A DNA stretch of 64,000 nucleotides from a virus. The stretch covers positions 1 through 64,000 of IMG/VR virus record IMGVR_UViG_3300018080_000138; one strand, given 5' to 3'. Below are positions 23,984-60,360 of the stretch, in pieces; within the stretch, counting starts at the first letter, position 1; each line of letters begins with the position of its first letter. The notes under the pieces are model-generated. The model made no database searches. It had not been told where the DNA came from and saw nothing but the letters and a program-made list of their open reading frames with translations. Made by a program: the position numbers and the translations under genes.

Positions 23984-24340
23984 ATGTATATTATATCAAA
24001 AGAAGTAATAATATCAGCGGCACATTGGTTAGATTTATCATACGAGTCAAAGTGTTCTGAGGTACATGGGCATAATTGGAAAATAAAAGTTATTTGTTGT
24101 AGTGATGAAGTAAATAGTAATGGTATGGTAATAGATTTCACAAAAATAAAAACTATAGTAAATCAGTATGATCATTCAACAATTAATCATACACTTAGTA
24201 ATCCTACAGCTGAAAGGCTTGCACGTGTACTTTGTAGTGATATACCATTTTGCGTTGCCGTAGTTGTTGAAGAAACAGAAGGAAATAAGTCTATTTATAT
24301 TGATCCTGAATGTCCATCCTGTATAAAGGTAATAGTATGA
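23984..24340 (+). CDS. queD: 6-carboxytetrahydropterin synthase
   Basis: SAAHWL, CSEVHGHNW, GMVIDF, DH..IN, NPTAE, EET motifs. Confidence 0.95.
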   Translation: MYIISKEVIISAAHWLDLSYESKCSEVHGHNWKIKVICCSDEVNSNGMVIDFTKIKTIVNQYDHSTINHTLSNPTAERLARVLCSDIPFCVAVVVEETEGNKSIYIDPECPSCIKVIV

Positions 24341-33159: not shown

Positions 33160-33828
33160 ATGGCGTCACAAATCAATGGATCAATAACTAAAATTGCAAA
33201 GAAGCTTAATATTCCAAGGCGGACAGTAAAGCTCGTTGTTAGAGCTTTGATGCAAGATATTTTAGTTACATTACCAAAAGAAGGAATTTTTCGTTTTGGA
33301 AATTTGTTTACTTTAAAGGTAAAGAAACTTGCAGCAAAGAAGTATTGGAATAATTTTAAGTCTGAGTTTGGTAAGGTTGGTGAAAGAAATACGGTTCGTA
33401 TTAAGGGAGGTACGGCCTTAATAACTGCTGTTAATGATGGAACACATCCAAAGAAGGATAGGTTGGCTAAAAGAAAAAAAGAGAAGGCAGAAAAACCTGT
33501 AGCTGAGAAGAAAAAGAAGAAGAGTGAAGCTAAATCAAAGAAACAAAAAACGAAGAAAGTTGTAGCTGAGAAGAAAACCAAGAAGAGTGAAGCTAAATCA
33601 AAGAAACAAAAAACGAAGAAAGTTGCGGCTGAGAAGAAAACCAAGGCAAAAAAAGGAAAAAAAGTAAAAGAAGAAGTAATTGAACCTGATGTTAATGATG
33701 ATCTTTTAATTGAGGAAGATCTTGGTTTGGAAGATCTTGGTTTGGAAGATGATAATGATGGTAGTGAAATTTCCGACGATGACGATGACTTGGATGGTTT
33801 AGATGATCTCGATCTCGGTGATATTTAG
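33160..33828 (+). CDS. HU/IHF-like DNA-binding protein with Lys-rich H1-like repeats and acidic tail
   Basis: IAKKLNI...FRFGNLFTL.V....K...N......V.I.G...L..AVN HU fold, then KAKSKKQKTKK repeats and a D/E tail. Confidence 0.7.
   Translation: MASQINGSITKIAKKLNIPRRTVKLVVRALMQDILVTLPKEGIFRFGNLFTLKVKKLAAKKYWNNFKSEFGKVGERNTVRIKGGTALITAVNDGTHPKKDRLAKRKKEKAEKPVAEKKKKKSEAKSKKQKTKKVVAEKKTKKSEAKSKKQKTKKVAAEKKTKAKKGKKVKEEVIEPDVNDDLLIEEDLGLEDLGLEDDNDGSEISDDDDDLDGLDDLDLGDI
33499..33645 (+). repeat. 63-bp in-frame tandem repeat (~2.3 copies)
   Basis: Units start at 33499, 33562 and 33625 (gtagctgagaagaaaa...aagaaagtt). Confidence 0.9.
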
Positions 33829-44051: not shown

Positions 44052-44999
44052 TTGGTGATAATGGTACGTGATAATCAGATTGGTTTGCTACAGTTTTGCA
44101 GTGAGCAAAGAAAAATTCTTATACTAAGATCGATAGGTGGTATTGGTGACATTATTAATACACGGCCTTTATTTAAACAGATAGCCGAGTTGTCTAATGG
44201 AAGTGAAATAACTTATGGATTACCGAGGGAATATATCTCATTAGTTATTGATCATCCGTATATTGATGCTGTATTGCCAATAGATTTAATAGATCAGGAT
44301 GAGTATGCCTGGGTCGGTGATACAACTAATAAGGCTGGAAATTATGAATATAAGCATTTACCTAATATTAGTTTACATCGGTCAGAGATTTGGGCAAGAT
44401 ATCTTGGATTTAATTTAGAAAACCATGACTATAATATTACCTTTTATAATAATGAAAAAAAATTGCAGGAAGAATTTATTGACGATTATTCTAATAAGGA
44501 GATTTTTATTGGATTAATGACTAAGACATCACATCCATCTAAGGATTGGTTTGATCATAGATGGATTGAACTTATAGATAGAATAAAAAGTGAGTATAAT
44601 AATATACATGTATTTAGGTTTGGTATGAAAAAGCCAAAAATGAGTAATGTTATAGATGTTGATACAAGAGGTAATCTTAGAAAATGGATGTATCTTACTG
44701 CTACAATGAATCTTATTATTACTCCGGCGACGTCCATGTTTTGTCTTGCCAACGCATTACATATACCAACTGTCGCAATTTTTGGCGTCGAAGATGGTCT
44801 TGTTTACGGCAAATATTTTAATGAATGTATTGTAGTAGAAAGAAGGAAAAAGGATGGTATTAAGTGGAGTAGTTGTCCATGTTGGGGCAGTCAGTATTGT
44901 TCTCATAGATTAGTAGATGGGATGGTAGAATGTATGCGGAGTATAACCGTTAATGAGGTATTATCTACACTTAGGAAAAAGTTAGATGCACTTATCTAA
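44052..44999 (+). CDS. GT9 (heptosyltransferase-like) glycosyltransferase
   Basis: GGIGDII, HPYID, SKDW...W, LA.AL.IPTVAIFG, CPCW...C...CM.SI. Confidence 0.85.
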   Translation: MVIMVRDNQIGLLQFCSEQRKILILRSIGGIGDIINTRPLFKQIAELSNGSEITYGLPREYISLVIDHPYIDAVLPIDLIDQDEYAWVGDTTNKAGNYEYKHLPNISLHRSEIWARYLGFNLENHDYNITFYNNEKKLQEEFIDDYSNKEIFIGLMTKTSHPSKDWFDHRWIELIDRIKSEYNNIHVFRFGMKKPKMSNVIDVDTRGNLRKWMYLTATMNLIITPATSMFCLANALHIPTVAIFGVEDGLVYGKYFNECIVVERRKKDGIKWSSCPCWGSQYCSHRLVDGMVECMRSITVNEVLSTLRKKLDALI

Positions 45000-51204: not shown

Positions 51205-52960
51205 TTTAGTATATATATAACAATGAATTAAAGTAAAAAAAAAATGATTAGGCACTAAGATATTGATTTGTATTTATTCCTATTCTTATACAAGATAGTT
51301 TTAGGTCGTTCATTAACATGACCCGGAAAATTTAATAGAAATCGGACAGTAGTATTAATGTAAATTGAGACATTAGTACACTAAGAATATTTCCGGGTCA
51401 TACTATTATAGTGCATCTAATAGTAGTTGGATGGTAAAGAAAGTTAACGGTAAACATAGCGAGTAGTCAATGCTGATCAAAGTAAAGAATTTTTTATACA
51501 TAATTAAAATGTATTGTAAAAATGAGTGTATTGAGTATATCCATGTAAAGGAAATTTTAGTGGATGCTATACGTTTTGTTTTTAGGTCTCCTGTACAAGA
51601 TAGATTGTTACGTTATCAAAGAAGGAATATAAGATCACCTGGTAGATAGGGATATGGATAAGATTTATAAAAATAGAATTGGTAGAGTACCAGTCGATAT
51701 AGAGAATTAAACAGATAAATAGTCAGTTGGTAGCCCATTAAAAAATTAAGGTATAGTGATGGTGCACCGGCTGGCTATTTTTTATTTATACCTGGCCCGA
51801 TGGTTAGTAATGGTAAAGTAAAAGTAAAGTTAGAAAATAATGTATAAGAAGAAAGGAAATAGGAATGAGTAAGTGTAAGATAAATAAAACAAGTAAAAGT
51901 ATAGATAAAAAAACCAAGATTACCAAGCATAGCAGTCATAGGATATAGGAGTAACAGACAGAGACATGGTGAGGAGGGGGAAAAAGCCAACCGCGTTTAC
52001 CTGGGGGCGGCGGTTAATCGAGTTATCAGTAATCTTTCCTACTCAGCATCATACTATCCTACCAAGTATTAAACCAGAGATAGCAAAGAAAATACTTACC
52101 CCGCATATTAATGTAAAAGATCAGGTAAGACAAATAAACCAAATAGGTACTGCAACTTTACCATAGTTGAGGTTGATTTCAATACGAAGTTGACACACTA
52201 CTAAAGAGAAGATGCAATAAGCGTGAAGTCAATAGCAAAAGTGGTATATAGTAAATAGAGTTGCCAAGTACGGTAAAAACTATATCATTTATTATAGATA
52301 CAATATCTTAAAATCCTATATATTGTAGTAGTTTCTATATAATCAGGCAATATCTTAGATAGTTTTAGTGAACTTTCCGAGTATTTAGGCATTTTTAGGC
52401 ATTTTTAGCGGAAAAACACGGTTATTCAGTAGAAATTAGCGGAAATAGTAGTATTTAGAGGGAATGTAGCAGTTTTAGCCTTAGAAATCCGCCTTAACTT
52501 GCTTTGGAGGGCATTTTTATAGGGTTGGTGGTTCAGTCGGTTACCATTAGGAATAGTAGTCGCTGATCAAAATTTTAGGCAATGGGATTTTTTAAGAATT
52601 TTAGGCAAGTTACGGCGGATTAGTCCACTTTTGTTACTTATTGTGAATAGTACAAGTATTCAGGCATGTATCTAAGAATGTTTTAGCATAAATGGTAGTT
52701 GGTCGTGTAAAATATAGAGTGGTTGAGGTAAGTCGGGTATATTGCCACTTGTTAACTTAAATGTAATAAGGTAGTTTGGTTCTCCAGAGTGATGTTATGA
52801 TTAGTAGTGAGTAGAAATTGGCGCTCATTGGATGGGTATGTATGATTAAGTGTGGTAGGGAGGTATTATGTGAGTTTTATACTTGGTAATGTATCATGGG
52901 GTTAAGTCATCATCACATATAAAGGAAAGAGAAGTGAGAAAGTTGAATAAGTTATATGAG
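51205..52960. other. gene-poor region, candidate genome terminus/origin/control region
   Basis: No convincing ORF with RBS over ~1.75 kb; inverted repeats, purine-rich tract, phased TTTTAGGC repeats. Confidence 0.5.
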
Positions 52961-52969
52961 TAGGTGTTT

Positions 52970-52986
52970 GTGGGATGATTTTTGCA
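52970..52986 (+). promoter_or_regulatory. sigma54-type -24/-12 promoter motif, copy 1
   Basis: GTGGGATGATTTTTGCA, GG-N10-GC; followed by GAGGTG RBS and ATG 53023. Confidence 0.6.
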
Positions 52987-53022
52987 CTATATTTTTATGA
53001 ATTAAACAAATGAGGTGACAAA

Positions 53023-53190
53023 ATGAAATATACAAAACGACCTTATGATAGAAAAACGATGATTTTCAAGGCCAATTATATACTATGCACTGCAATGCAA
53101 GACTACACAGCCTTAAAGGAGGTCTTGTTGGAGGCCGTGGCCGATGGTATTATTTACCCTGAAAAAACTACAACTGATTCAATTATATAA
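53023..53190 (+). CDS. 55-aa hypothetical protein (below ORF-track cutoff)
   Basis: GAGGTG RBS; starts MKYTK like 53409-53603. Confidence 0.6.
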   Translation: MKYTKRPYDRKTMIFKANYILCTAMQDYTALKEVLLEAVADGIIYPEKTTTDSII

Positions 53191-53211
53191 CATTTCATCG
53201 ACTTAGTAAAA

Positions 53212-53231
53212 GTATGGAGTAAACTCCATAC
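53212..53231. promoter_or_regulatory. palindromic enhancer/operator-like site
   Basis: GTATGGAGT-AA-ACTCCATAC. Confidence 0.75.
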
Positions 53232-53353
53232 ATTTTAGTCAAGAATCGGGCAGAGATTACATATTTTTCGGCTTATATAATATACCATAGTTATATATGG
53301 TCGTTAGGGGTCCTCTGTCTCATAAGGGAAAAAACTTCCTTTTCTTAGAAGGT

Positions 53354-53370
53354 TTGGGATGATTCTTGCA
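53354..53370 (+). promoter_or_regulatory. sigma54-type promoter motif, copy 2
   Basis: TTGGGATGATTCTTGCA; AAGGAG RBS then ATG 53409. Confidence 0.65.
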
Positions 53371-53408
53371 ATATAATATAATGAAAATAAAGATAAAGGA
53401 GTAAGAAA

Positions 53409-53603
53409 ATGAAATATACAAAGATCAAAATTAGGTTTACTGACAAAGACGGGAGTCTTGGAAAAACGGCAACTAAAACATTGTATAATGATAGTTACGA
53501 TATGTATGAAAAAATTGTTGCCTATGCAGCTAAGCTACACAAACAACGGTTATTAGATGATGCATTGATTGCACAGTTGATGCAAGAGACCCCTTATAAA
53601 TGA
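53409..53603 (+). CDS. hypothetical early protein
   Basis: AAGGAG RBS directly after the promoter motif. Confidence 0.65.
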   Translation: MKYTKIKIRFTDKDGSLGKTATKTLYNDSYDMYEKIVAYAAKLHKQRLLDDALIAQLMQETPYK

Positions 53604-53625
53604 GTTAAATGAGTACAAAATACCC

Positions 53626-53724
53626 GCCATCGAAGCCCAATAACTGGCAGAAATGTTAGCACATTTGGGTGGTATGGAAAGGTCGTAATAAGGCGGCAAG
53701 CCGGTTCGATTCCGACCGATGGCA
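53626..53724 (+). ncRNA. tRNA-like RNA / pseudo-tRNA
   Basis: Perfect 7-bp acceptor stem GCCATCG/CGATGGC + A; T-arm GCCGG-TTCGATT-CCGAC; non-canonical D and anticodon region. Confidence 0.6.
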
Positions 53725-53748
53725 CAAAAAAACAAATGAGGTAATAAA

Positions 53749-53916
53749 ATGAGATGTAAACCGGGAACAAGAGTAAAATTTTATGACTATGATTTAGAAG
53801 TGGTACAGATAGGAGTATATCTAAAACATTTTGCACCTTGTGTAATGTCAATTTATGTACCACTTGACGATAAGGTATACTATGTCAATGAAAATGATAC
53901 TACACCTATTAAATGA
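53749..53916 (+). CDS. 55-aa hypothetical protein (below ORF-track cutoff)
   Basis: GAGGT RBS, ATG 53749 to TGA 53916. Confidence 0.55.
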   Translation: MRCKPGTRVKFYDYDLEVVQIGVYLKHFAPCVMSIYVPLDDKVYYVNENDTTPIK

Positions 53917-53935
53917 TATACTCAGGAGGTATTAA

Positions 53936-54178
53936 ATGACGAATACTGATAAAGCATATATTAGTGCCAGGATGAGGATTAATTTTCCTGGTATAAAGCA
54001 TAAAGATTTGGATAATGGCGTGGTGTTTCCAACACTGAGGTTTAGAGTGACTCAAAAAAATGAAAAATTTTATTTGGAGAGCGCAGCACGTGGATTATAT
54101 TTTACTGTCAGAAGTTCGGAAAATGTTGTGCGAATTATGGATGAGTTAGTTGATGAAGTAAAATTTTGGACTGAGTAA
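53936..54178 (+). CDS. hypothetical protein
   Basis: AGGAGGT RBS. Confidence 0.65.
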   Translation: MTNTDKAYISARMRINFPGIKHKDLDNGVVFPTLRFRVTQKNEKFYLESAARGLYFTVRSSENVVRIMDELVDEVKFWTE

Positions 54179-54234
54179 CTTGAAAAAAGGGGCTTAAAGG
54201 AACGTTGTATAGAAATTGACCAAGAAAAGTAAAA

Positions 54235-54254
54235 GTATGGAGTTTATCCCATAC
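54235..54254. promoter_or_regulatory. palindromic enhancer/operator-like site
   Basis: GTATGGAGT-TT-ATCCCATAC, flanked by ATTGACCAA (54215) / TTGGTCAAT (54258). Confidence 0.7.
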
Positions 54255-54356
54255 AATTTGGTCAATAGTTAAGGATATTTCTCTATATGTTATTTTATGT
54301 GTGAGTGTGATTGTCCTCTCTGAGTTATTAACGGGAGTTACTATTACCCAGGAGGT

Positions 54357-54373
54357 TTGGGATGATTTTTGCA
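54357..54373 (+). promoter_or_regulatory. sigma54-type promoter motif, copy 3
   Basis: TTGGGATGATTTTTGCA; AAGGAG RBS then ATG 54412. Confidence 0.65.
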
Positions 54374-54411
54374 TTATATTAATGTGAAAACAAAGACAAA
54401 GGAGTAATAAA

Positions 54412-54600
54412 ATGAGAGTATATGTTAATACTGATAAATATAGATGGTCACACGGTAAAAAACCTCGTGGCAAAGGCCAATGGTGGTTTGAAATTGGTAG
54501 TGATGATTTTGGATTAAATGCAACTTATGGTGAGGCCGTAAAAGCTGCGAGGAAAAAAGCTGAGTTAGAAGGAGTTAATGAAATATATGTACTTCCATAA
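54412..54600 (+). CDS. hypothetical early protein
   Basis: AAGGAG RBS; Y..SHGKKPRG.G.W.F pattern. Confidence 0.7.
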   Translation: MRVYVNTDKYRWSHGKKPRGKGQWWFEIGSDDFGLNATYGEAVKAARKKAELEGVNEIYVLP

Positions 54601-54651
54601 ATGAAGCGATAAGATGAAATACAATCGGCTGGAAAAAAGGAGTGTGGAATA

Positions 54652-54918
54652 ATGTCAGTAACAAGGGAACAAATAAAAGAGGCATTACACGCAGTATTAG
54701 CACAGAGGGAAAGGGATGATTTGAATAAATTGTTTATTACAGATGTTAAGAATCATCTTTCACAGGCTAATAAAAATGGTGAAACGTTAACATACATTAA
54801 ATGGCGGAATAGAACGGAATTCAAACTGAAAGCATCTATCACAGCAATCATGGCACAGTTTTCGGCAGCAGGATTTAATGTTGAGTGGTGTGGTACACAT
54901 AATTTTGAAATTTGGTAG
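54652..54918 (+). CDS. hypothetical protein
   Basis: AAGGAG RBS. Confidence 0.6.
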   Translation: MSVTREQIKEALHAVLAQRERDDLNKLFITDVKNHLSQANKNGETLTYIKWRNRTEFKLKASITAIMAQFSAAGFNVEWCGTHNFEIW

Positions 54919-55148
54919 ATGTACTATGTCAATATAAATGATGTCATAGTCCTTTAGTAGTGTACTCAGGAGGTATTAATGGATGAAGTGTTATTTTGTT
55001 GTAAGTGGTGTAAGCATTTAAACCTATTAATTGGGATTTACAAAGATTACTTAGTTAATACCTTAAAAATAAGGAAAGAAGAATATTAGATGTTGGCAGG
55101 GAATACATAAAGATCAGAAACAGTCATAATCTATTTAAAGGTGATGAA

Positions 55149-55595
55149 ATGCAAGGTGAAATCAGTAGACAGAATGCTCTTCGGTATATATTAGCGGGTA
55201 ATGCAATCATTACCATGAAGAACATTAGCACTGGTAATAGGTTCACTTATAAAATAAGTAAATTGAAAAAGAAATATCAGCAAACGAATAAGTCAACCGA
55301 TATTTATTGGGTAAGAGTGTTAACATGCCCAAATAATACAAGGGGGTATCGGTTTTTCGGAACAGTATTTGTTAATGGTTCAGTTAATTTTAAAGTATCA
55401 AATAAAAGTAAAATTTCAAAAGATGCGCAAAGTGTTCGTGTTTTTCATTATTGTTTATATCATCTAACTAAGAATGATTTATCTGATGATGTAAAATTTT
55501 ACCATGAAGGGTATTGTGGTCGTTGTGGTCGATTGTTAACTGTCCCTGAGAGTATTGTTGCAGGATATGGACCAATCTGCATTAATTTAATTTAA
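55149..55595 (+). CDS. DUF6011-like Zn-binding protein
   Basis: AGNA..T.....TG.RFTYKI; HEG.CGRCGR.LT.PESI..G.GP.C. Confidence 0.75.
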   Translation: MQGEISRQNALRYILAGNAIITMKNISTGNRFTYKISKLKKKYQQTNKSTDIYWVRVLTCPNNTRGYRFFGTVFVNGSVNFKVSNKSKISKDAQSVRVFHYCLYHLTKNDLSDDVKFYHEGYCGRCGRLLTVPESIVAGYGPICINLI

Positions 55596-55615
55596 TAATA
55601 TAATGAGGTATTGAG

Positions 55616-55822
55616 ATGTTTAATTTTCCAACTGAAGAAGAAATTAATGAATTTTATGCAGAAAGAAAAAATTCAACACTTGTTAAATCCGAGAATGAAA
55701 AAGTCCTTAGAGAACTTGCGATAATGTATAAACAAAGTCCATTTACATTAGATGTATTTAAAAAAATGGTTTTGAATAATTTAAACATTCTGACCACCGT
55801 CTATAAGGATATAGTCGGATAA
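55616..55822 (+). CDS. hypothetical protein
   Basis: GAGGT RBS; paralog remnant at ~56928. Confidence 0.6.
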   Translation: MFNFPTEEEINEFYAERKNSTLVKSENEKVLRELAIMYKQSPFTLDVFKKMVLNNLNILTTVYKDIVG

Positions 55823-55838
55823 TAAATGAGGTGATAAA

Positions 55839-56033
55839 ATGGGCAGTTTAGTTGTTTTAAAACGTTATAAAGAGCCGGATGCTGAGTGGTTTCCAACAAC
55901 ACTTGCCGAGTGCATTGAGCATACAGAGGGTTCAGGTTATTGGGGAAAAGACACAGTAACCTATTTACTAAGTACTGGTAATGTTGTATGGACTCCATTT
56001 GCAGAGTATAAAAGAGGAGAAACAGATGCATAA
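55839..56033 (+). CDS. hypothetical protein
   Basis: GAGGTG RBS. Confidence 0.65.
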   Translation: MGSLVVLKRYKEPDAEWFPTTLAECIEHTEGSGYWGKDTVTYLLSTGNVVWTPFAEYKRGETDA

Positions 56034-56283
56034 AGTAATAAAAAATGCTAAGCTGGTAGAAATAAGGAGTGATGGTGCTCAAAAATATGAGTATGATGAT
56101 CCAACAGAGGAGTTTCCAGCGGTGTGGCTAACAGGGATTCAACGAGCAAGTAATCCGGAGATAGGAATGGTTGGCGACCTCGTTTATAGGAAATTTAGGT
56201 CAGGTGCATGGTTTATGTTTAGAAGGTATCCTATAAAAAGAGTGAAGGAGAATGAAGATGATACGGATGGTAGTATTAACTAA
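56026..56283 (+). CDS. hypothetical protein
   Basis: GAGGAG RBS before internal ATG (MHKVIK). Confidence 0.55.
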   Translation: MHKVIKNAKLVEIRSDGAQKYEYDDPTEEFPAVWLTGIQRASNPEIGMVGDLVYRKFRSGAWFMFRRYPIKRVKENEDDTDGSIN

Positions 56284-56308
56284 GAAACGTCTCATGGAAA
56301 TTAAAAAA

Positions 56309-56542
56309 ATGTCAAAAGTAAAAGTCAACACGGATGAATATAAAAAGGTTCATGGTAAATGTCCGGATAATAATACGGATGCTATTTAGACGGTTAGTAT
56401 AGATGGTATAGTGAAAGATAGATCATTTTCAGTATATCTAAATTGTTTAACTATAAATAATAAGAAAGCTACGGTAAAAGAATTAGAGCCGTTACGTAGA
56501 GGCGCAAAAAATGGATTAGATGGGTTAAAAAGGAAAATATAA
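56309..56542 (+). pseudogene. paralog of 54412-54600 interrupted by in-frame TAG at 56387
   Basis: V.VNTD.Y...HGK.P matches 54412; frame continues after the TAG to TAA 56542, abutting the next gene. Confidence 0.55.
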
Positions 56543-56543
56543 A

Positions 56544-56912
56544 ATGAACATATATGTTGAAACTATTGTACCTAATAAGTATAGTGTTAAGTTATTAGGC
56601 TATAATGCAGTATTACATTATAAGGTAGTTGATAATCCTATGGATATAATTAATGAAATATTTACAGGTATTGGGTGGTATTTAGATATGAAAGAAATGT
56701 TTAATGATGATCCTGAAAGTATTTGTGTCAACCAAGATAAGTTACAGGGTGAACAGATTGTAGGGCGGACTGTTGAAATAAAAGATGGTTTTTGGAATGC
56801 TGGTTACCGTGGGATGGTTACTGAGTATGAAGGCATTGTTGGCTGGTACACGGTTATCATTAATGAAATTAGTTTTATCTATGTACGTGACGAATTTGTT
56901 GTACTTAATTAG
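56544..56912 (+). CDS. hypothetical protein (C-terminal KOW/SH3-like)
   Basis: VGRTVEIKDG...G.RGMV. Confidence 0.55.
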   Translation: MNIYVETIVPNKYSVKLLGYNAVLHYKVVDNPMDIINEIFTGIGWYLDMKEMFNDDPESICVNQDKLQGEQIVGRTVEIKDGFWNAGYRGMVTEYEGIVGWYTVIINEISFIYVRDEFVVLN

Positions 56913-57138
56913 ATAAGGAGATTTTTAATGAAGACATTACCTACAAAGAAAGAAGTCGATGAGTTTTATGCCGCATATGGTACTACTAATTTTTATGTAA
57001 TGGATGCCGATAAAAAAGTAAAAGAAATTCTTACACAGCTATATAAAGAGGGTTTTTAACCAAGGCCTCATTTACAAAGGTTGTACTGAAAAATATTAGG
57101 GATATGAACGGTTAAATAGTATAGTTAGTGGAGATGGT

Positions 57139-57489
57139 ATGAGAAAAATAAAAATACCTATAAAGTATAAGGAACAATTAGAGGCAAGATTTGATCCAAA
57201 AAACCTTATTTGTGATTTTTCAACAAATAATTATTACATTAGAATTCCATGTCCATTATGCGAGGATTATGGAGGTAATTTGGTTTGTAGTAATTGTCCA
57301 TTTCGTGAACCTATAGATTTATGCAAAGTTGATAGTTCTTGCGGGGGTTTTGTTGAAGACATTATTGGTTTACCTAAATTTTCTTGGACAAAAGCAGACA
57401 TAATAATACATAAGACATTATATAATCAGGCTGTTGAGCAATTAATTGAACTCAGAAGTAAAGCAAAGGAGTACATTGAGTGGGTATAA
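57139..57489 (+). CDS. Cys-rich paralog family member
   Basis: KIKIP.KYK..L.ARFD...CPLC...CSNCPF...C..F...EYIEWV. Confidence 0.75.
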   Translation: MRKIKIPIKYKEQLEARFDPKNLICDFSTNNYYIRIPCPLCEDYGGNLVCSNCPFREPIDLCKVDSSCGGFVEDIIGLPKFSWTKADIIIHKTLYNQAVEQLIELRSKAKEYIEWV

Positions 57490-57491
57490 AA

Positions 57492-57544
57492 GTATGGAGT
57501 ATACCCCATATAATTTGGTTAAAAGTATGGGATAAACTCCATAC
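57492..57544. promoter_or_regulatory. tandem pair of palindromic enhancer/operator-like sites
   Basis: GTATGGAGT-AT-ACCCCATAT (57492) and GTATGGGAT-AA-ACTCCATAC (57525), 33 bp apart. Confidence 0.75.
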
Positions 57545-57631
57545 TTTTGTAATAAAATAAACAACTAATTTTATAGAGCCGGTATATTCCCGGCAAACCC
57601 TTACAATAAAAATGCTCATTTCTTAGAAGGT

Positions 57632-57648
57632 TTGGGATGATTCTTGCA
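57632..57648 (+). promoter_or_regulatory. sigma54-type promoter motif, copy 4
   Basis: TTGGGATGATTCTTGCA; GAGG RBS then ATG 57706. Confidence 0.65.
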
Positions 57649-57705
57649 ATATAATATAATGAAAATAAAGACAAAAAATAACAATTTAAAATATGAGGCA
57701 TTAAA

Positions 57706-57891
57706 ATGAAACGCAAGGTCAGTAAAAAAGAAATGGAATTATATATAGAGCCAGCAGAAAAAATATATAATTCGATGTCAGTAGTAGAGTTTGACTTATT
57801 AATTCAAGCCGCAAAAAATCGAGCAGACAAGTTTAATAAAGGAACAGTTGCAAAAGATACATTGAGATCAATTGTAGTTCCAGAAGATTGA
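57706..57891 (+). CDS. hypothetical early protein
   Basis: GAGG RBS after the promoter motif. Confidence 0.6.
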   Translation: MKRKVSKKEMELYIEPAEKIYNSMSVVEFDLLIQAAKNRADKFNKGTVAKDTLRSIVVPED

Positions 57892-58004
57892 AGCCATCTG
57901 ACCTTTATAATAATGAAGTCGGGGAGTGGCGTGGGCATGGTTATTGTACACAATAAGTAGGTTAGATTTCGGTCAATGACGTTAAAGTAGAGGAGTATGA
58001 TAAG

Positions 58005-58229
58005 ATGAATAATCAAACATTCATTAATAATCATATAGGGGTACAACAGCATAAAAGTAAGTACAAAGATTTATATGTTGTTACTGTTAGGTCTAAACTT
58101 GTTGTTAGATTATTGAAGGAACGATTTGAGATTTCCACTAAGCGGGGTAAAGTAGTAAAATTTGATCAAGGTGAACTTGACATATTAAAGCGACTGATAC
58201 TACAACATTATTTAGATAATAACTATTAA
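58005..58229 (+). CDS. hypothetical protein
   Basis: GAGGAG RBS. Confidence 0.6.
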   Translation: MNNQTFINNHIGVQQHKSKYKDLYVVTVRSKLVVRLLKERFEISTKRGKVVKFDQGELDILKRLILQHYLDNNY

Positions 58230-58254
58230 CCATAAAATTGGATGAGGTGATAGA

Positions 58255-58608
58255 GTGGTACAGCAGTTGAGTTCGATTGAGAAGCGGTTAACAATACAAT
58301 ATAATAGTTCGATGTTGCATGAGCTTAAGACAGAATTGGAATCAAGAGGGATTACATTAAGTGTTATTGAGTTTAATGTAAAATTGGCGGATTATATCAT
58401 TAAACCATTACCGTTAGCGTTGTTATGCTCGTTTAATACGGAGGAGAAGGTATATAAATACAGGGTGACGGTTGCCGATAATAAGTATGTTATTGTTGAT
58501 GGTGATGGTTTGGCAGTTGCAAGGACTTCGGCGGTTGATTATGCAGTTGATGAGATAATTGATGATGTTGTTTTTAGTGTAACATCAATAAAAGGAAAAG
58601 ATAAATGA
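58255..58608 (+). CDS. hypothetical protein
   Basis: GAGGTG RBS, GTG start. Confidence 0.6.
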   Translation: MVQQLSSIEKRLTIQYNSSMLHELKTELESRGITLSVIEFNVKLADYIIKPLPLALLCSFNTEEKVYKYRVTVADNKYVIVDGDGLAVARTSAVDYAVDEIIDDVVFSVTSIKGKDK

Positions 58609-59090
58609 ATGAACTTAGTAGACAAAAAAAGGTGGAAGTATTATATCAACTACAATATGTTGAACCTGTTATTGTACGGGATAAGACAGTGGCAAGTAAA
58701 ACTGTGGGGTGTCCTGAGGATATAGTAAATATTTTACGTGAGCTGAAGTATGCTGCAGTTGAAAAGTTTATTGGTGTATATCTTGACTCAAGAAATCATG
58801 TTTTAGCGGTATCAATTTTACATGTTGGCGGTATTACGGAAACAGTAGTTGATCCTAAAATAGTATTTGGAATGGCATTTTTATGCAATGCTACTGCATT
58901 GGTGGTAGTACATAACCATCCATCCGGGAATAATGCGCCAAGTGACAAAGATAAAGAAATGACAAGAAAACTTGTTACATGTGGTGATTTTTTAGATATA
59001 AAGTTATTTGATCATATTATAATAGGTAGTGATGGATATTATTCATTTGCTGAATCTTTGGGCGATGAATTACTCATTGGTCGACATTGA
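58605..59090 (+). CDS. RadC-like JAB domain protein
   Basis: E.F....LD.RN, HNHPSGN..PS..D, DHIIIG. Confidence 0.92.
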   Translation: MNELSRQKKVEVLYQLQYVEPVIVRDKTVASKTVGCPEDIVNILRELKYAAVEKFIGVYLDSRNHVLAVSILHVGGITETVVDPKIVFGMAFLCNATALVVVHNHPSGNNAPSDKDKEMTRKLVTCGDFLDIKLFDHIIIGSDGYYSFAESLGDELLIGRH

Positions 59091-59105
59091 TTTAGTAGTA
59101 ATAGA

Positions 59106-59336
59106 TTGGAGGATGTAATGGCAGCAAAGTTGAATAAGTTGCTTAGTGGTAGTATTAGGCAGTCAGATTATACCCCTGGTACATTGAAGCGATTGGCAAA
59201 AAAGACTGCAAATGATTTTAACGCAATTCAATACAATTACGCAATTAGACATTCTGCAAAAACACATCAAATGTTATTAGTGGTTGACATGATGCTAAAA
59301 AGTTTGAAATTAGTCACACATACAGTAGTTTTATAG
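59106..59336 (+). CDS. hypothetical protein
   Basis: GGAGG RBS before internal ATG. Confidence 0.5.
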   Translation: MEDVMAAKLNKLLSGSIRQSDYTPGTLKRLAKKTANDFNAIQYNYAIRHSAKTHQMLLVVDMMLKSLKLVTHTVVL

Positions 59337-59351
59337 TAAAAGGAATGTATT

Positions 59352-59759
59352 ATGAAACCAGAAAAAGTGTACTTGGTCGATGTGGATGATGTTTTTTTGG
59401 CGGGTTTATCAAGATCACAGAGGTCTCGTATTAAATCAAGGGGATATATTATTTTTGGCTATCATAGACAACAAATTAACGTGAATTATGATAACATTGA
59501 TTTTGAGATAAAAGATATAAGAAAAATTGTTGGTAGTGAACTTCATAAGTATATTTCCTATGGCCATTATTATTTTGATGACATTGTGTCGGAGGTAGTC
59601 TATAATTTTCTAAGAAAGTCGGGAAAAATAAAGAAAAATGCCATAGGTTTTTTAAGATCAATAACAAAATCAACATGTATGAATTTTTGTAAAAAGTCAT
59701 GGGCTGTGAAGGAATATCCAATGACAGGAGTTGGAATAGATGAAAGAAATATACAATAA
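59352..59759 (+). CDS. hypothetical protein with sigma region-2-like C-terminus
   Basis: DDIVSEVVYNF...FLRSITKSTCMNF.KK. Confidence 0.45.
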   Translation: MKPEKVYLVDVDDVFLAGLSRSQRSRIKSRGYIIFGYHRQQINVNYDNIDFEIKDIRKIVGSELHKYISYGHYYFDDIVSEVVYNFLRKSGKIKKNAIGFLRSITKSTCMNFCKKSWAVKEYPMTGVGIDERNIQ

Positions 59760-59776
59760 GGAATAGTATAATTATT

Positions 59777-59995
59777 ATGAAAAAAATAAAAATAACGAAC
59801 AATGTTCATTTTATATTGGAACATGAGCTATTAGTAGTTTCATTTCCGTCGGGAACAATAGTCGGTTATAGAAGGTATCCAAAAGAATTGGATAAAACGG
59901 TTATTATTGATTGGTTGGAAAAGAATTTTGGTACAAAGATAGCCCATGATTACTTGGATAAAATTTTAAGTGACCAGGATTTGGAATGGGAATAA
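59777..59995 (+). CDS. hypothetical protein, paralog of 60361-60573
   Basis: Shared I..T..V..I...TI.G...WL...FG...A pattern. Confidence 0.6.
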   Translation: MKKIKITNNVHFILEHELLVVSFPSGTIVGYRRYPKELDKTVIIDWLEKNFGTKIAHDYLDKILSDQDLEWE

Positions 59996-60007
59996 TTTAG
60001 TCATGTT

Positions 60008-60033
60008 AATGTATGGAGTATACTCCATACATT
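60008..60033. promoter_or_regulatory. perfect 26-bp palindrome (enhancer/operator-like)
   Basis: AATGTATGGAGTATACTCCATACATT. Confidence 0.8.
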
Positions 60034-60190
60034 TTAGTCAAGAATTGGGCATAGATTACATACTTTTGTGCCTATATGACATGTTATAGTTATATATAGT
60101 AGGTGTGAGCCTTTTGTCCCATGTTAGAAAAAACTTCCTTTTCTTAGAAGGTTTGGGATGATTCTTGCAATATAATATAATGAAAATAAA
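60011..60190 (+). repeat. ~180-bp degenerate direct repeat of 53212-53391
   Basis: Colinear from the palindrome through the promoter; last ~60 bp essentially identical. Confidence 0.85.
60153..60169 (+). promoter_or_regulatory. sigma54-type promoter motif, copy 5
   Basis: TTGGGATGATTCTTGCA. Confidence 0.65.
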
Positions 60191-60360
60191 AAGGTAAGTT
60201 AAAATAATGCAGAAAAAATATGAGGAATTAATTAAGCGATTGGATGCCATGTATTTGGCGGCAATAGAATTATCAAAGAGGTATGATAAAATTTTATCAT
60301 ATATTTTGGATGAGAAATGAGGGGTATTAATTATAACGCAAATTAAATCAGGCATGAGAA

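Follow-up and report, generated by a model that had tools for sequence, protein, structure and literature searches.

The window analyzed here, positions 1-64,000 of the IMG/VR record IMGVR_UViG_3300018080_000138 (96,708 bp), comes from an uncultured marine-sediment phage whose genome has 31.6% G+C, 54-bp terminal repeats, and essentially all of its genes on the + strand. Gene order runs from tail (1-14 kb) through replication (15-48 kb), small genes (48-64 kb), and glycosyltransferases (64-78 kb) to head (from 78 kb). Within the small-gene block, downstream of a gene-free region, lie five copies of a promoter-like block, each opening a predicted transcription unit and joined to a conserved leader with a Shine-Dalgarno site, together with five copies of a palindrome that follow the genes ahead of four of these blocks (Table 1). 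An earlier note made from the sequence alone had described five copies of a 16-mer, all on the + strand, each with exact GG-N10-GC spacing and each shortly ahead of a small open reading frame (ORF), and had read them as sigma-54 promoters of early genes that are activated from the palindrome. We find that the region is best explained, with a probability of roughly 0.8, as an array of paralogous boundary-plus-promoter cassettes.

The 16-mer TGGGATGATTYTTGCA has five exact matches (53355, 54358, 57633, and 60154, preceded by the first at 52971), all on the + strand and all with exact GG-N10-GC spacing, and its end lies 36-57 nt before the start codon of a small ORF (starts at 53023, 53409, 54412, 57706, and 60207). 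The earlier description is borne out in all of this except its coordinates, which pointed to real sites but were 1 nt low. Chance would supply 0.17 copies and no shuffle reached five, and a search of the complete 96,708-bp genome with one mismatch permitted returned only the same five. Alignment of the copies places TTGCA-N-TATAWT in a single register in all five (TATATT in copies 1 and 3, TATAAT in copies 2, 4, and 5), showing that the previous statement that TATAAT is not conserved in copies 1 and 3 was wrong. Because this -10-like TATAWT is kept in every copy, the conserved block measures 23-24 bp rather than 16. Also common to the copies are a conserved TGAA 5-8 nt 3' of TATAWT and, beyond it, the leader with its Shine-Dalgarno site. 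Exact searches of IMG/VR returned single chance matches only for the 16-mer and zero matches for the palindrome. Three viral contigs (L366, L369, and L381) carry TGGCATGATTCTTGCAGTATAAT, where the 16-mer differs only at -23 (C for G).

The palindrome GTATGGAGT-NN-ACTCCATAC likewise occurs five times where 0.01 copies are expected, with the copies at 53212 and 60011 perfect and those at 54235, 57492, and 57525 bearing two mismatches each. Palindrome centres lie 135, 115, 133/100, and 135 bp upstream of the GG at four of the five promoters, confirming the distances first reported, and none precedes copy 1. On the coding strand the palindromes begin 3-57 nt past the stop of the gene before them and are flanked by A and T runs. 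Only six intergenic sites in the whole genome satisfy a filter that asks for a hairpin of -8 kcal/mol or better and a T4 run, and three of the palindromes are among them. Within the arms the variants consist of single transitions, which produce A.C mismatches or G.U pairs, with no compensatory changes, and it is the palindrome sequence, not pairing alone, that is kept where flanks have diverged. Linked to the palindromes is a conserved TTTRGTYAA element similar to the TTTTAGGCAA repeats found in the non-coding region. On these features a role as terminator or boundary site suits the palindromes no less than a role as enhancer, and the non-compensatory variation hints at protein binding. RNase III sites were rejected because the hairpins are too short.

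Two further resemblances to the palindromes were seen. The 5' part of the promoter block, GTTTGGGAT (53352-53360), and the half-site variant GTATGGGAT (57525-57533) are alike at 8 of 9 positions, so that one protein might read both, or the likeness may be chance (rough p 0.01-0.02). Upstream of the array, AAGTAAAAGTA(T/A)AG occurs twice at 51816-51912; both copies look like the palindromes' left flank together with their first bases (AGTAAAAGTATGGAGT), and are possibly remnants of a decayed cassette.

Copies 2, 4, and 5 are nearly identical over about 70 bp, and copies 2 and 5 share 79% identity across the entire intergenic region, which indicates that the copies are paralogues rather than five independent events. 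Copies 3 and 4 share with copies 2 and 5 two islands, one made of the palindrome with its flanks and the other of the promoter block with its leader, and copy 1 shares with the other cassettes the promoter block and leader alone. Since the DNA between the two islands is not alignable, both islands appear to have been maintained, by selection or by gene conversion. The first five codons downstream of copies 1 and 2 are also identical (both ORFs open MKYTK).

Table 1. Features of the cassette array and its upstream region, in positions of the window.
Feature	Positions	Strand	Description
Gene-free region	52167..52969	.	Same-strand TTTTAGGCA-type repeats and a 17-bp inverted repeat; stretch of 856 bp
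Promoter block copy 1	52970..52993	+	GTGGGATGATTTTTGCACTATATT; first promoter after the 856-bp non-coding region; no palindrome upstream
Perfect palindrome	53212..53231	+	22 nt after stop of ORF 53023-53190; -14.8 kcal/mol; flanks AAAA and ATTTT, then TTTTAGTCAA
Promoter block copy 2	53354..53377	+	TTGGGATGATTCTTGCAATATAAT; second TATAAT 5 nt on gives TTGGGA-17-TATAAT
Palindrome with 2 non-compensatory changes	54235..54254	+	57 nt after stop of ORF 53936-54178; weak hairpin, -7.5 kcal/mol, then AATTTGGTCAA
Promoter block copy 3	54357..54380	+	TTGGGATGATTTTTGCATTATATT
Tandem palindromes (57492-57511, 57525-57544)	57492..57544	+	3 nt after stop of ORF 57139-57489; together one long hairpin, -30 kcal/mol, then TTTTGTAATAAAA
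Promoter block copy 4	57632..57655	+	Same sequence as copy 2
Perfect palindrome	60011..60030	+	16 nt after stop of ORF 59777-59995; -14.3 kcal/mol, then ATTTTAGTCAA
Promoter block copy 5	60153..60176	+	Same sequence as copy 2; last of the array; its unit has no following palindrome
Five transcription units (predicted)	53023..60320	+	About 35 small genes, mostly of no known family; RadC and DUF6011 recognizable

Among the closest published counterparts are the PeSLs, composite terminator/promoter cassettes of T4-like phages (PMC2839356, PMC4122927). Like them, the array described here is a repeated and conserved unit of stem-loop plus promoter that punctuates small genes of unknown function, and its cassettes are paralogous, with the duplication extending into the first codons of copies 1 and 2. 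Unlike them, it belongs to a phage that is not T4-like, its stem-loop lies about 100 bp from the promoter instead of adjacent to it, and its promoter is not near-consensus sigma-70.

In the arrangement that we propose, each cassette would consist of a hairpin after the previous gene (missing ahead of unit 1), a free stretch of about 100 bp, the 23-24-bp block, and a leader with a ribosome-binding site, and the five cassettes would divide the early-type small-gene block into separate transcription units. The palindromes would serve primarily to terminate or bound the unit ahead of them, and proteins might bind them as well. The block would be a composite in which a sigma-54-type core, TGGGATG-N4-TTGCA, is joined to the -10-like TATAWT one base on, and host sigma-54 RNA polymerase would dock on the core, helping to switch the units on. 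Its activator would have to be supplied by the host, because the phage encodes none.

The sigma-54 likeness of the core was scored by positions matched to TGGCACG-N4-TTGCW, a general bacterial consensus. The core matches 10 of the 12 positions, both invariant doublets included; an equal or better match occurred in 9.8e-5 of 2 million random 24-mers of the phage base composition, and nowhere else in the genome, on either strand, is it equalled. Shared with bacterial sigma-54 promoters are the GG and GC 10 bp apart, the T before GG, A at -22, G at -20, and TTGCA at -15 to -11, as well as a position on the same strand as the genes and 36-57 nt before them. Compared with the validated sigma-54 promoter of Escherichia coli pspG (TTGGCATGATTCTTGTAAT; S2 Table of PMC12316311), the phage sequence TTGGGATGATTCTTGCAAT is identical at 17 of 19 positions, and the identity takes in the spacer. 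The phage block differs from sigma-54 promoters in having G for C at -23 and TATAWT directly after the core, and its genome offers neither an activator gene nor a proven enhancer; sigma-54 dependence of the blocks is predicted from sequence. Its setting, in what is probably the early region of a virulent-looking phage, is also unlike theirs; to our knowledge, sigma-54 promoters in the early regions of virulent phages are hardly covered in published work. We put docking of sigma-54 polymerase on the blocks, as part of their function, at even odds or slightly below.

A series of observations weighs against such docking. The TATAWT one base after the core, conserved in all copies, is not something that sigma-54 requires, and copies 2, 4, and 5 contain a shifted register, TTGGGA-17-TATAAT, that matches sigma-70 at 10 of 12 positions. 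Among the five copies the N4 spacer has a single variable position (Y); the copies are paralogues with little divergence, and because the spacer hardly varies here, common descent is inseparable from selection. The departure from consensus that was pointed out earlier (GGGATG versus GGCACG) is real, and in a compilation of 720 validated promoters, where TGGCA is counted 393 times, TGGAA 39, TGGTA 32, and TGGGA at most 8 (PMC12316311), G is the rarest base at -23; the TGGGA passages checked in that table are all out of register. Six-frame searches of the phage genome gave only a sub-threshold match to PF00158 (Sigma54_activat), on the clamp loader, and returned no GAFTGA-like motif, no Sigma54_DBD (RpoN) match above threshold, and no Sigma70 region 2 or region 4; a T7-type polymerase was not found in a six-frame search that also matched no control genome and is correspondingly weak. 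None of the RNA runs searched for the phage contains it. Finally, the guanines of the phage may be 7-deazaguanine derivatives, as is suggested by its synthesis genes described below, and such modification, if present, could alter the major-groove reading of GG, GC, and palindrome.

The earlier observation that no bacterial enhancer-binding protein (bEBP) is encoded in the window is borne out by the PF00158 and GAFTGA searches and holds for the whole phage genome. A variant or phage-encoded factor had also been suggested; no phage sigma factor, RpoN, or polymerase was found. A phage-encoded polymerase or sigma factor as reader of the blocks was rejected, since no such gene was found, and from the same lack it follows that host RNA polymerase must read them, possibly with an unseen helper. 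The 43 small proteins of 47.5-63.7 kb include none with a DNA-binding Pfam domain.

Genes for 7-deazaguanine synthesis lie at 21.8-30 kb and comprise GTP cyclohydrolase I, QueD (23984-24340), radical-SAM QueE, QueC, and a QueF-like gene. At 33160-33828 is encoded a 222-aa protein with an N-terminal HU/IHF-type domain (PF00216, E 5.6e-10). It recalls TF1 of phage SPO1, which binds modified phage DNA at early promoters.

A viral scan with the pattern TGGNANG-N4-TTGCA-N-TATAWT gave 82 hits, half of which carry the canonical TGGCAYG and fall into roughly 21 distinct families, versus about two for each other class. Because TATAWT was demanded by the pattern, the scan is no proof that the fusion is enriched in general. 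One contig, IMGVR_UViG_3300025605_000004 (98,174 bp, terminal repeats, 50% G+C), encodes proteins unrelated to those of this phage and contains, at 66.2-72.6 kb, seven same-strand cassettes within 6.4 kb in a minus-strand small-ORF block. Each cassette runs from a GC-rich terminator through the palindrome TACTAGCTAGTAA with an extra half-site, a -35 box (TTGACA, TTGACT, TTGATT, or TTAACA, 16-18 bp before TATAAT), TGGCACG-N4-TTGCA, TATAAT after 1-3 bases, and a conserved box to a Shine-Dalgarno site and ATG. Its sigma-54 half-elements are invariant and its N4 is free (GTTA, AGGA, TTTC, TTTA, TAAA), the combination that marks sigma-54 recognition. A perfect sigma-54 core here lies within a complete sigma-70 promoter, and, judged by its motifs, the array of this unrelated phage is built of promoters in which two sigma types overlap. 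We know of no publication describing it.

Both phages have a same-strand array in a small-ORF block of 6-7 kb, a genome of roughly 98 kb with terminal repeats, no bEBP gene (none was found in IMGVR_UViG_3300025605_000004 either), and the order hairpin, palindrome, sigma-54-type core, one base, TATAAT, leader, Shine-Dalgarno site, ATG. Apart from its unrelated proteins and higher G+C, the analogue differs in its perfect TGGCACG, its variable N4, a real -35 everywhere, a separate GC-rich terminator, and a palindrome that lies closer, only about 50-75 bp upstream of the core. As far as motifs can tell, these two arrays show a recurring phage design in which small-gene cassettes are headed by a sigma-54 core with a -10 box fused to it. 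The analogue makes it less likely that the sigma-54 likeness in the marine-sediment phage is an accident, and it means that TATAWT has to be taken seriously as a -10. The earlier sigma-54 reading of the 16-mer stands in part: the consensus statistics and the parallel in the unrelated contig speak for it, and the G at -23, the TATAWT, and the sigma-70 register against it.

The alternative that survives best takes TATAWT as the true -10 of a sigma-70-family holoenzyme, with TGGGATGATT replacing the -35 and read by a phage or host factor in the manner of a MotA box, or, in a variant, with TTGGGA serving directly as the -35 in copies 2, 4, and 5. The sigma-54 likeness would then be coincidence, or a docking site that merely modulates a sigma-70 promoter. 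This explanation accounts for the invariant register of TATAWT in all five copies and for the TGAA 5-8 nt downstream, where the start would fall, and the analogue, with its genuine -35 16-18 bp before TATAAT in every copy, also favors it. Across all intergenic DNA of the genome the best sigma-70 score is 10/12, and the TTGGGA-17-TATAAT of copies 2, 4, and 5 is among the eight best. T4-like PeSL/PmSL cassettes, moreover, use sigma-70 or Mot-type promoters (PMC4122927). However, no copy has a -35-like hexamer 16-18 bp upstream of TATAWT in the conserved register, the shifted register decays in copies 1 (TTTTAT) and 3 (TAATGT), and the TG is misplaced by 2 nt for an extended -10. Neither the 43 small early proteins nor the six-frame searches yielded a sigma, MotA-like, or helix-turn-helix protein, a phage factor would imply an earlier promoter class of which none was found in the genome, and a 1-in-10,000 sigma-54 consensus match would be left to chance. 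If the sigma-70 explanation holds, the cassettes would resemble T4 middle promoters and the PmSLs of vibriophage nt-1, in which the -35 gives way to a conserved box at about -30 that works together with a TATAAT-like -10, whereas the phage has no detected MotA/AsiA homologue or earlier promoter class, and its box sequence is unrelated. We regard it as possible, with the odds tilted against it.

Other consensus sequences were rejected. The -33/-7 promoters of Bacteroidota do not match the blocks, and Shine-Dalgarno sites precede the genes; the consensus sequences of SigH, ECF, and SigD do not fit the conserved positions in a by-eye comparison. Since no other repeated intergenic motif was found in the genome and no intergenic sigma-70 match exceeds 10/12, the five blocks are the only recognizable promoter family of the phage. 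The starts predicted for copy 2 by the two models are 53381 (sigma-54, the C of GC +12) and about 53384 (sigma-70, from TATAWT), and because they are only ~3 nt apart, mapping of starts cannot separate the models.

The full model put forward in the earlier note goes further than docking. It holds that the blocks are enhancer-dependent sigma-54 promoters, that the palindrome is the activating site of a host bEBP of the AAA+ type, and that infection is gated by a host signal. If it is true, a virulent-type phage that lacks transcription machinery would open its first genes in this way, and, given how nearly the block is identical to the pspG promoter, a physiological or stress signal could act, for example, through a membrane-stress activator of the PspF kind. 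The palindrome has properties that such a site would have: its 9-bp arms have centres 11 bp apart, the spacing expected of a helix-turn-helix dimer, four of the five cores have it 100-135 bp upstream, one unit has two palindromes 33 bp apart, and it is kept where flanks diverged, with non-compensatory transitions that point to reading by a protein over RNA pairing. Against this, copy 1 has no palindrome, the palindromes hug stop codons as terminators do, no activator gene is found in the phage, and the palindrome of the analogue lies nearer to its core. No IHF-consensus site lies between palindrome and core, and an exact-match search of 185,579 species genomes, a collection that may lack the host, found the palindrome only twice and nowhere as a repeated site, once inside a gene and once as a plain terminator, and at a promoter in neither case. 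What is left of the palindrome as enhancer is its position, and we consider the model unlikely; being a special case of sigma-54 docking, it is counted within the likelihood given above for docking.

That the repeats are instead signals outside transcription, such as recombination or shuffling sites, RNA leader or processing elements, or sites for replication or packaging proteins, is very improbable: gene shuffling is believed to take place through cassettes of the PeSL type (PMC2839356, PMC4122927), TTTTAGTCAA beside the palindrome resembles the repeats of the non-coding region, and the match of 8 of 9 positions between block and half-site would suit such signals, but the strict same-strand orientation, the fixed 36-57 nt to the starts, and the joint -24/-12 and -10 likeness are promoter-like, and the hairpins are too short to be processed by RNase III.

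The gene-free region ahead of copy 1 contains six or seven same-strand copies of TTTTAG(G/C)C(A) at 52360-52700, including a tandem GGCATTTTTA x2, and the arms of its 17-bp inverted repeat lie at 52486-52502 and 52605-52621. It is probably an origin, packaging, or genome-end region, and its repeats would be iteron-like. Inside unit 2, at 53626-53724, is a tRNA-like sequence with the acceptor stem GCCATCG/CGATGGC, a GGTTCGATTCC T-arm, and a non-canonical interior; it was not called by ARAGORN or Rfam, which detected nothing in 51-61 kb. Numerous glycosyltransferases (GT9, GT2, GT4, and four CgeB-like Glyco_trans_1_2) are encoded at 62.7-96 kb of the phage genome and at 44052-44999 of the window, and a pyruvyl transferase and sugar-modifying enzymes accompany them around the head genes.

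Shine-Dalgarno sites precede about two thirds of the phage genes, which would argue only against a typical Bacteroidota host, and neither DnaN nor RecA nor a dehydratase-like gene pointed to an informative nearest organism. Identical phage DNA is present in sediment and seawater metagenomes, and contigs from four other samples are identical to the window, with no natural variation; contig breaks at copies 2, 4, and 5 are attributable to repeat-induced assembly breaks. Searches for relatives with the major capsid protein, RadC, and DUF6011 as queries, and with profiles of ligase and DUF6011, revealed no phage with more than one to four genes in common with this one. No DNA match turned up in a phage collection; for the DNA polymerase, identity to fragments of faecal phages is only about 34%. 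An excess of forward-strand TGG-N9-TGCW in some DUF6011 loci was dismissed as coding-sequence noise.

Phage early transcription, in the textbook view, starts from host sigma-70 promoters or is carried out by a phage polymerase, and sigma-54 polymerase is silent until an ATP-driven activator fires it. If the sigma-54 reading of the cassettes is true, this would be a phage whose only conserved promoter family is sigma-54-type, and host physiology could gate its infection. The fusion of a -24/-12 core with a -10 may let two polymerase forms compete at one site, or may alternatively lower the melting barrier. Recurrence of the design in an unrelated contig suggests an almost unstudied phage use of sigma-54 polymerase, or a way of holding that polymerase inactive on phage DNA.

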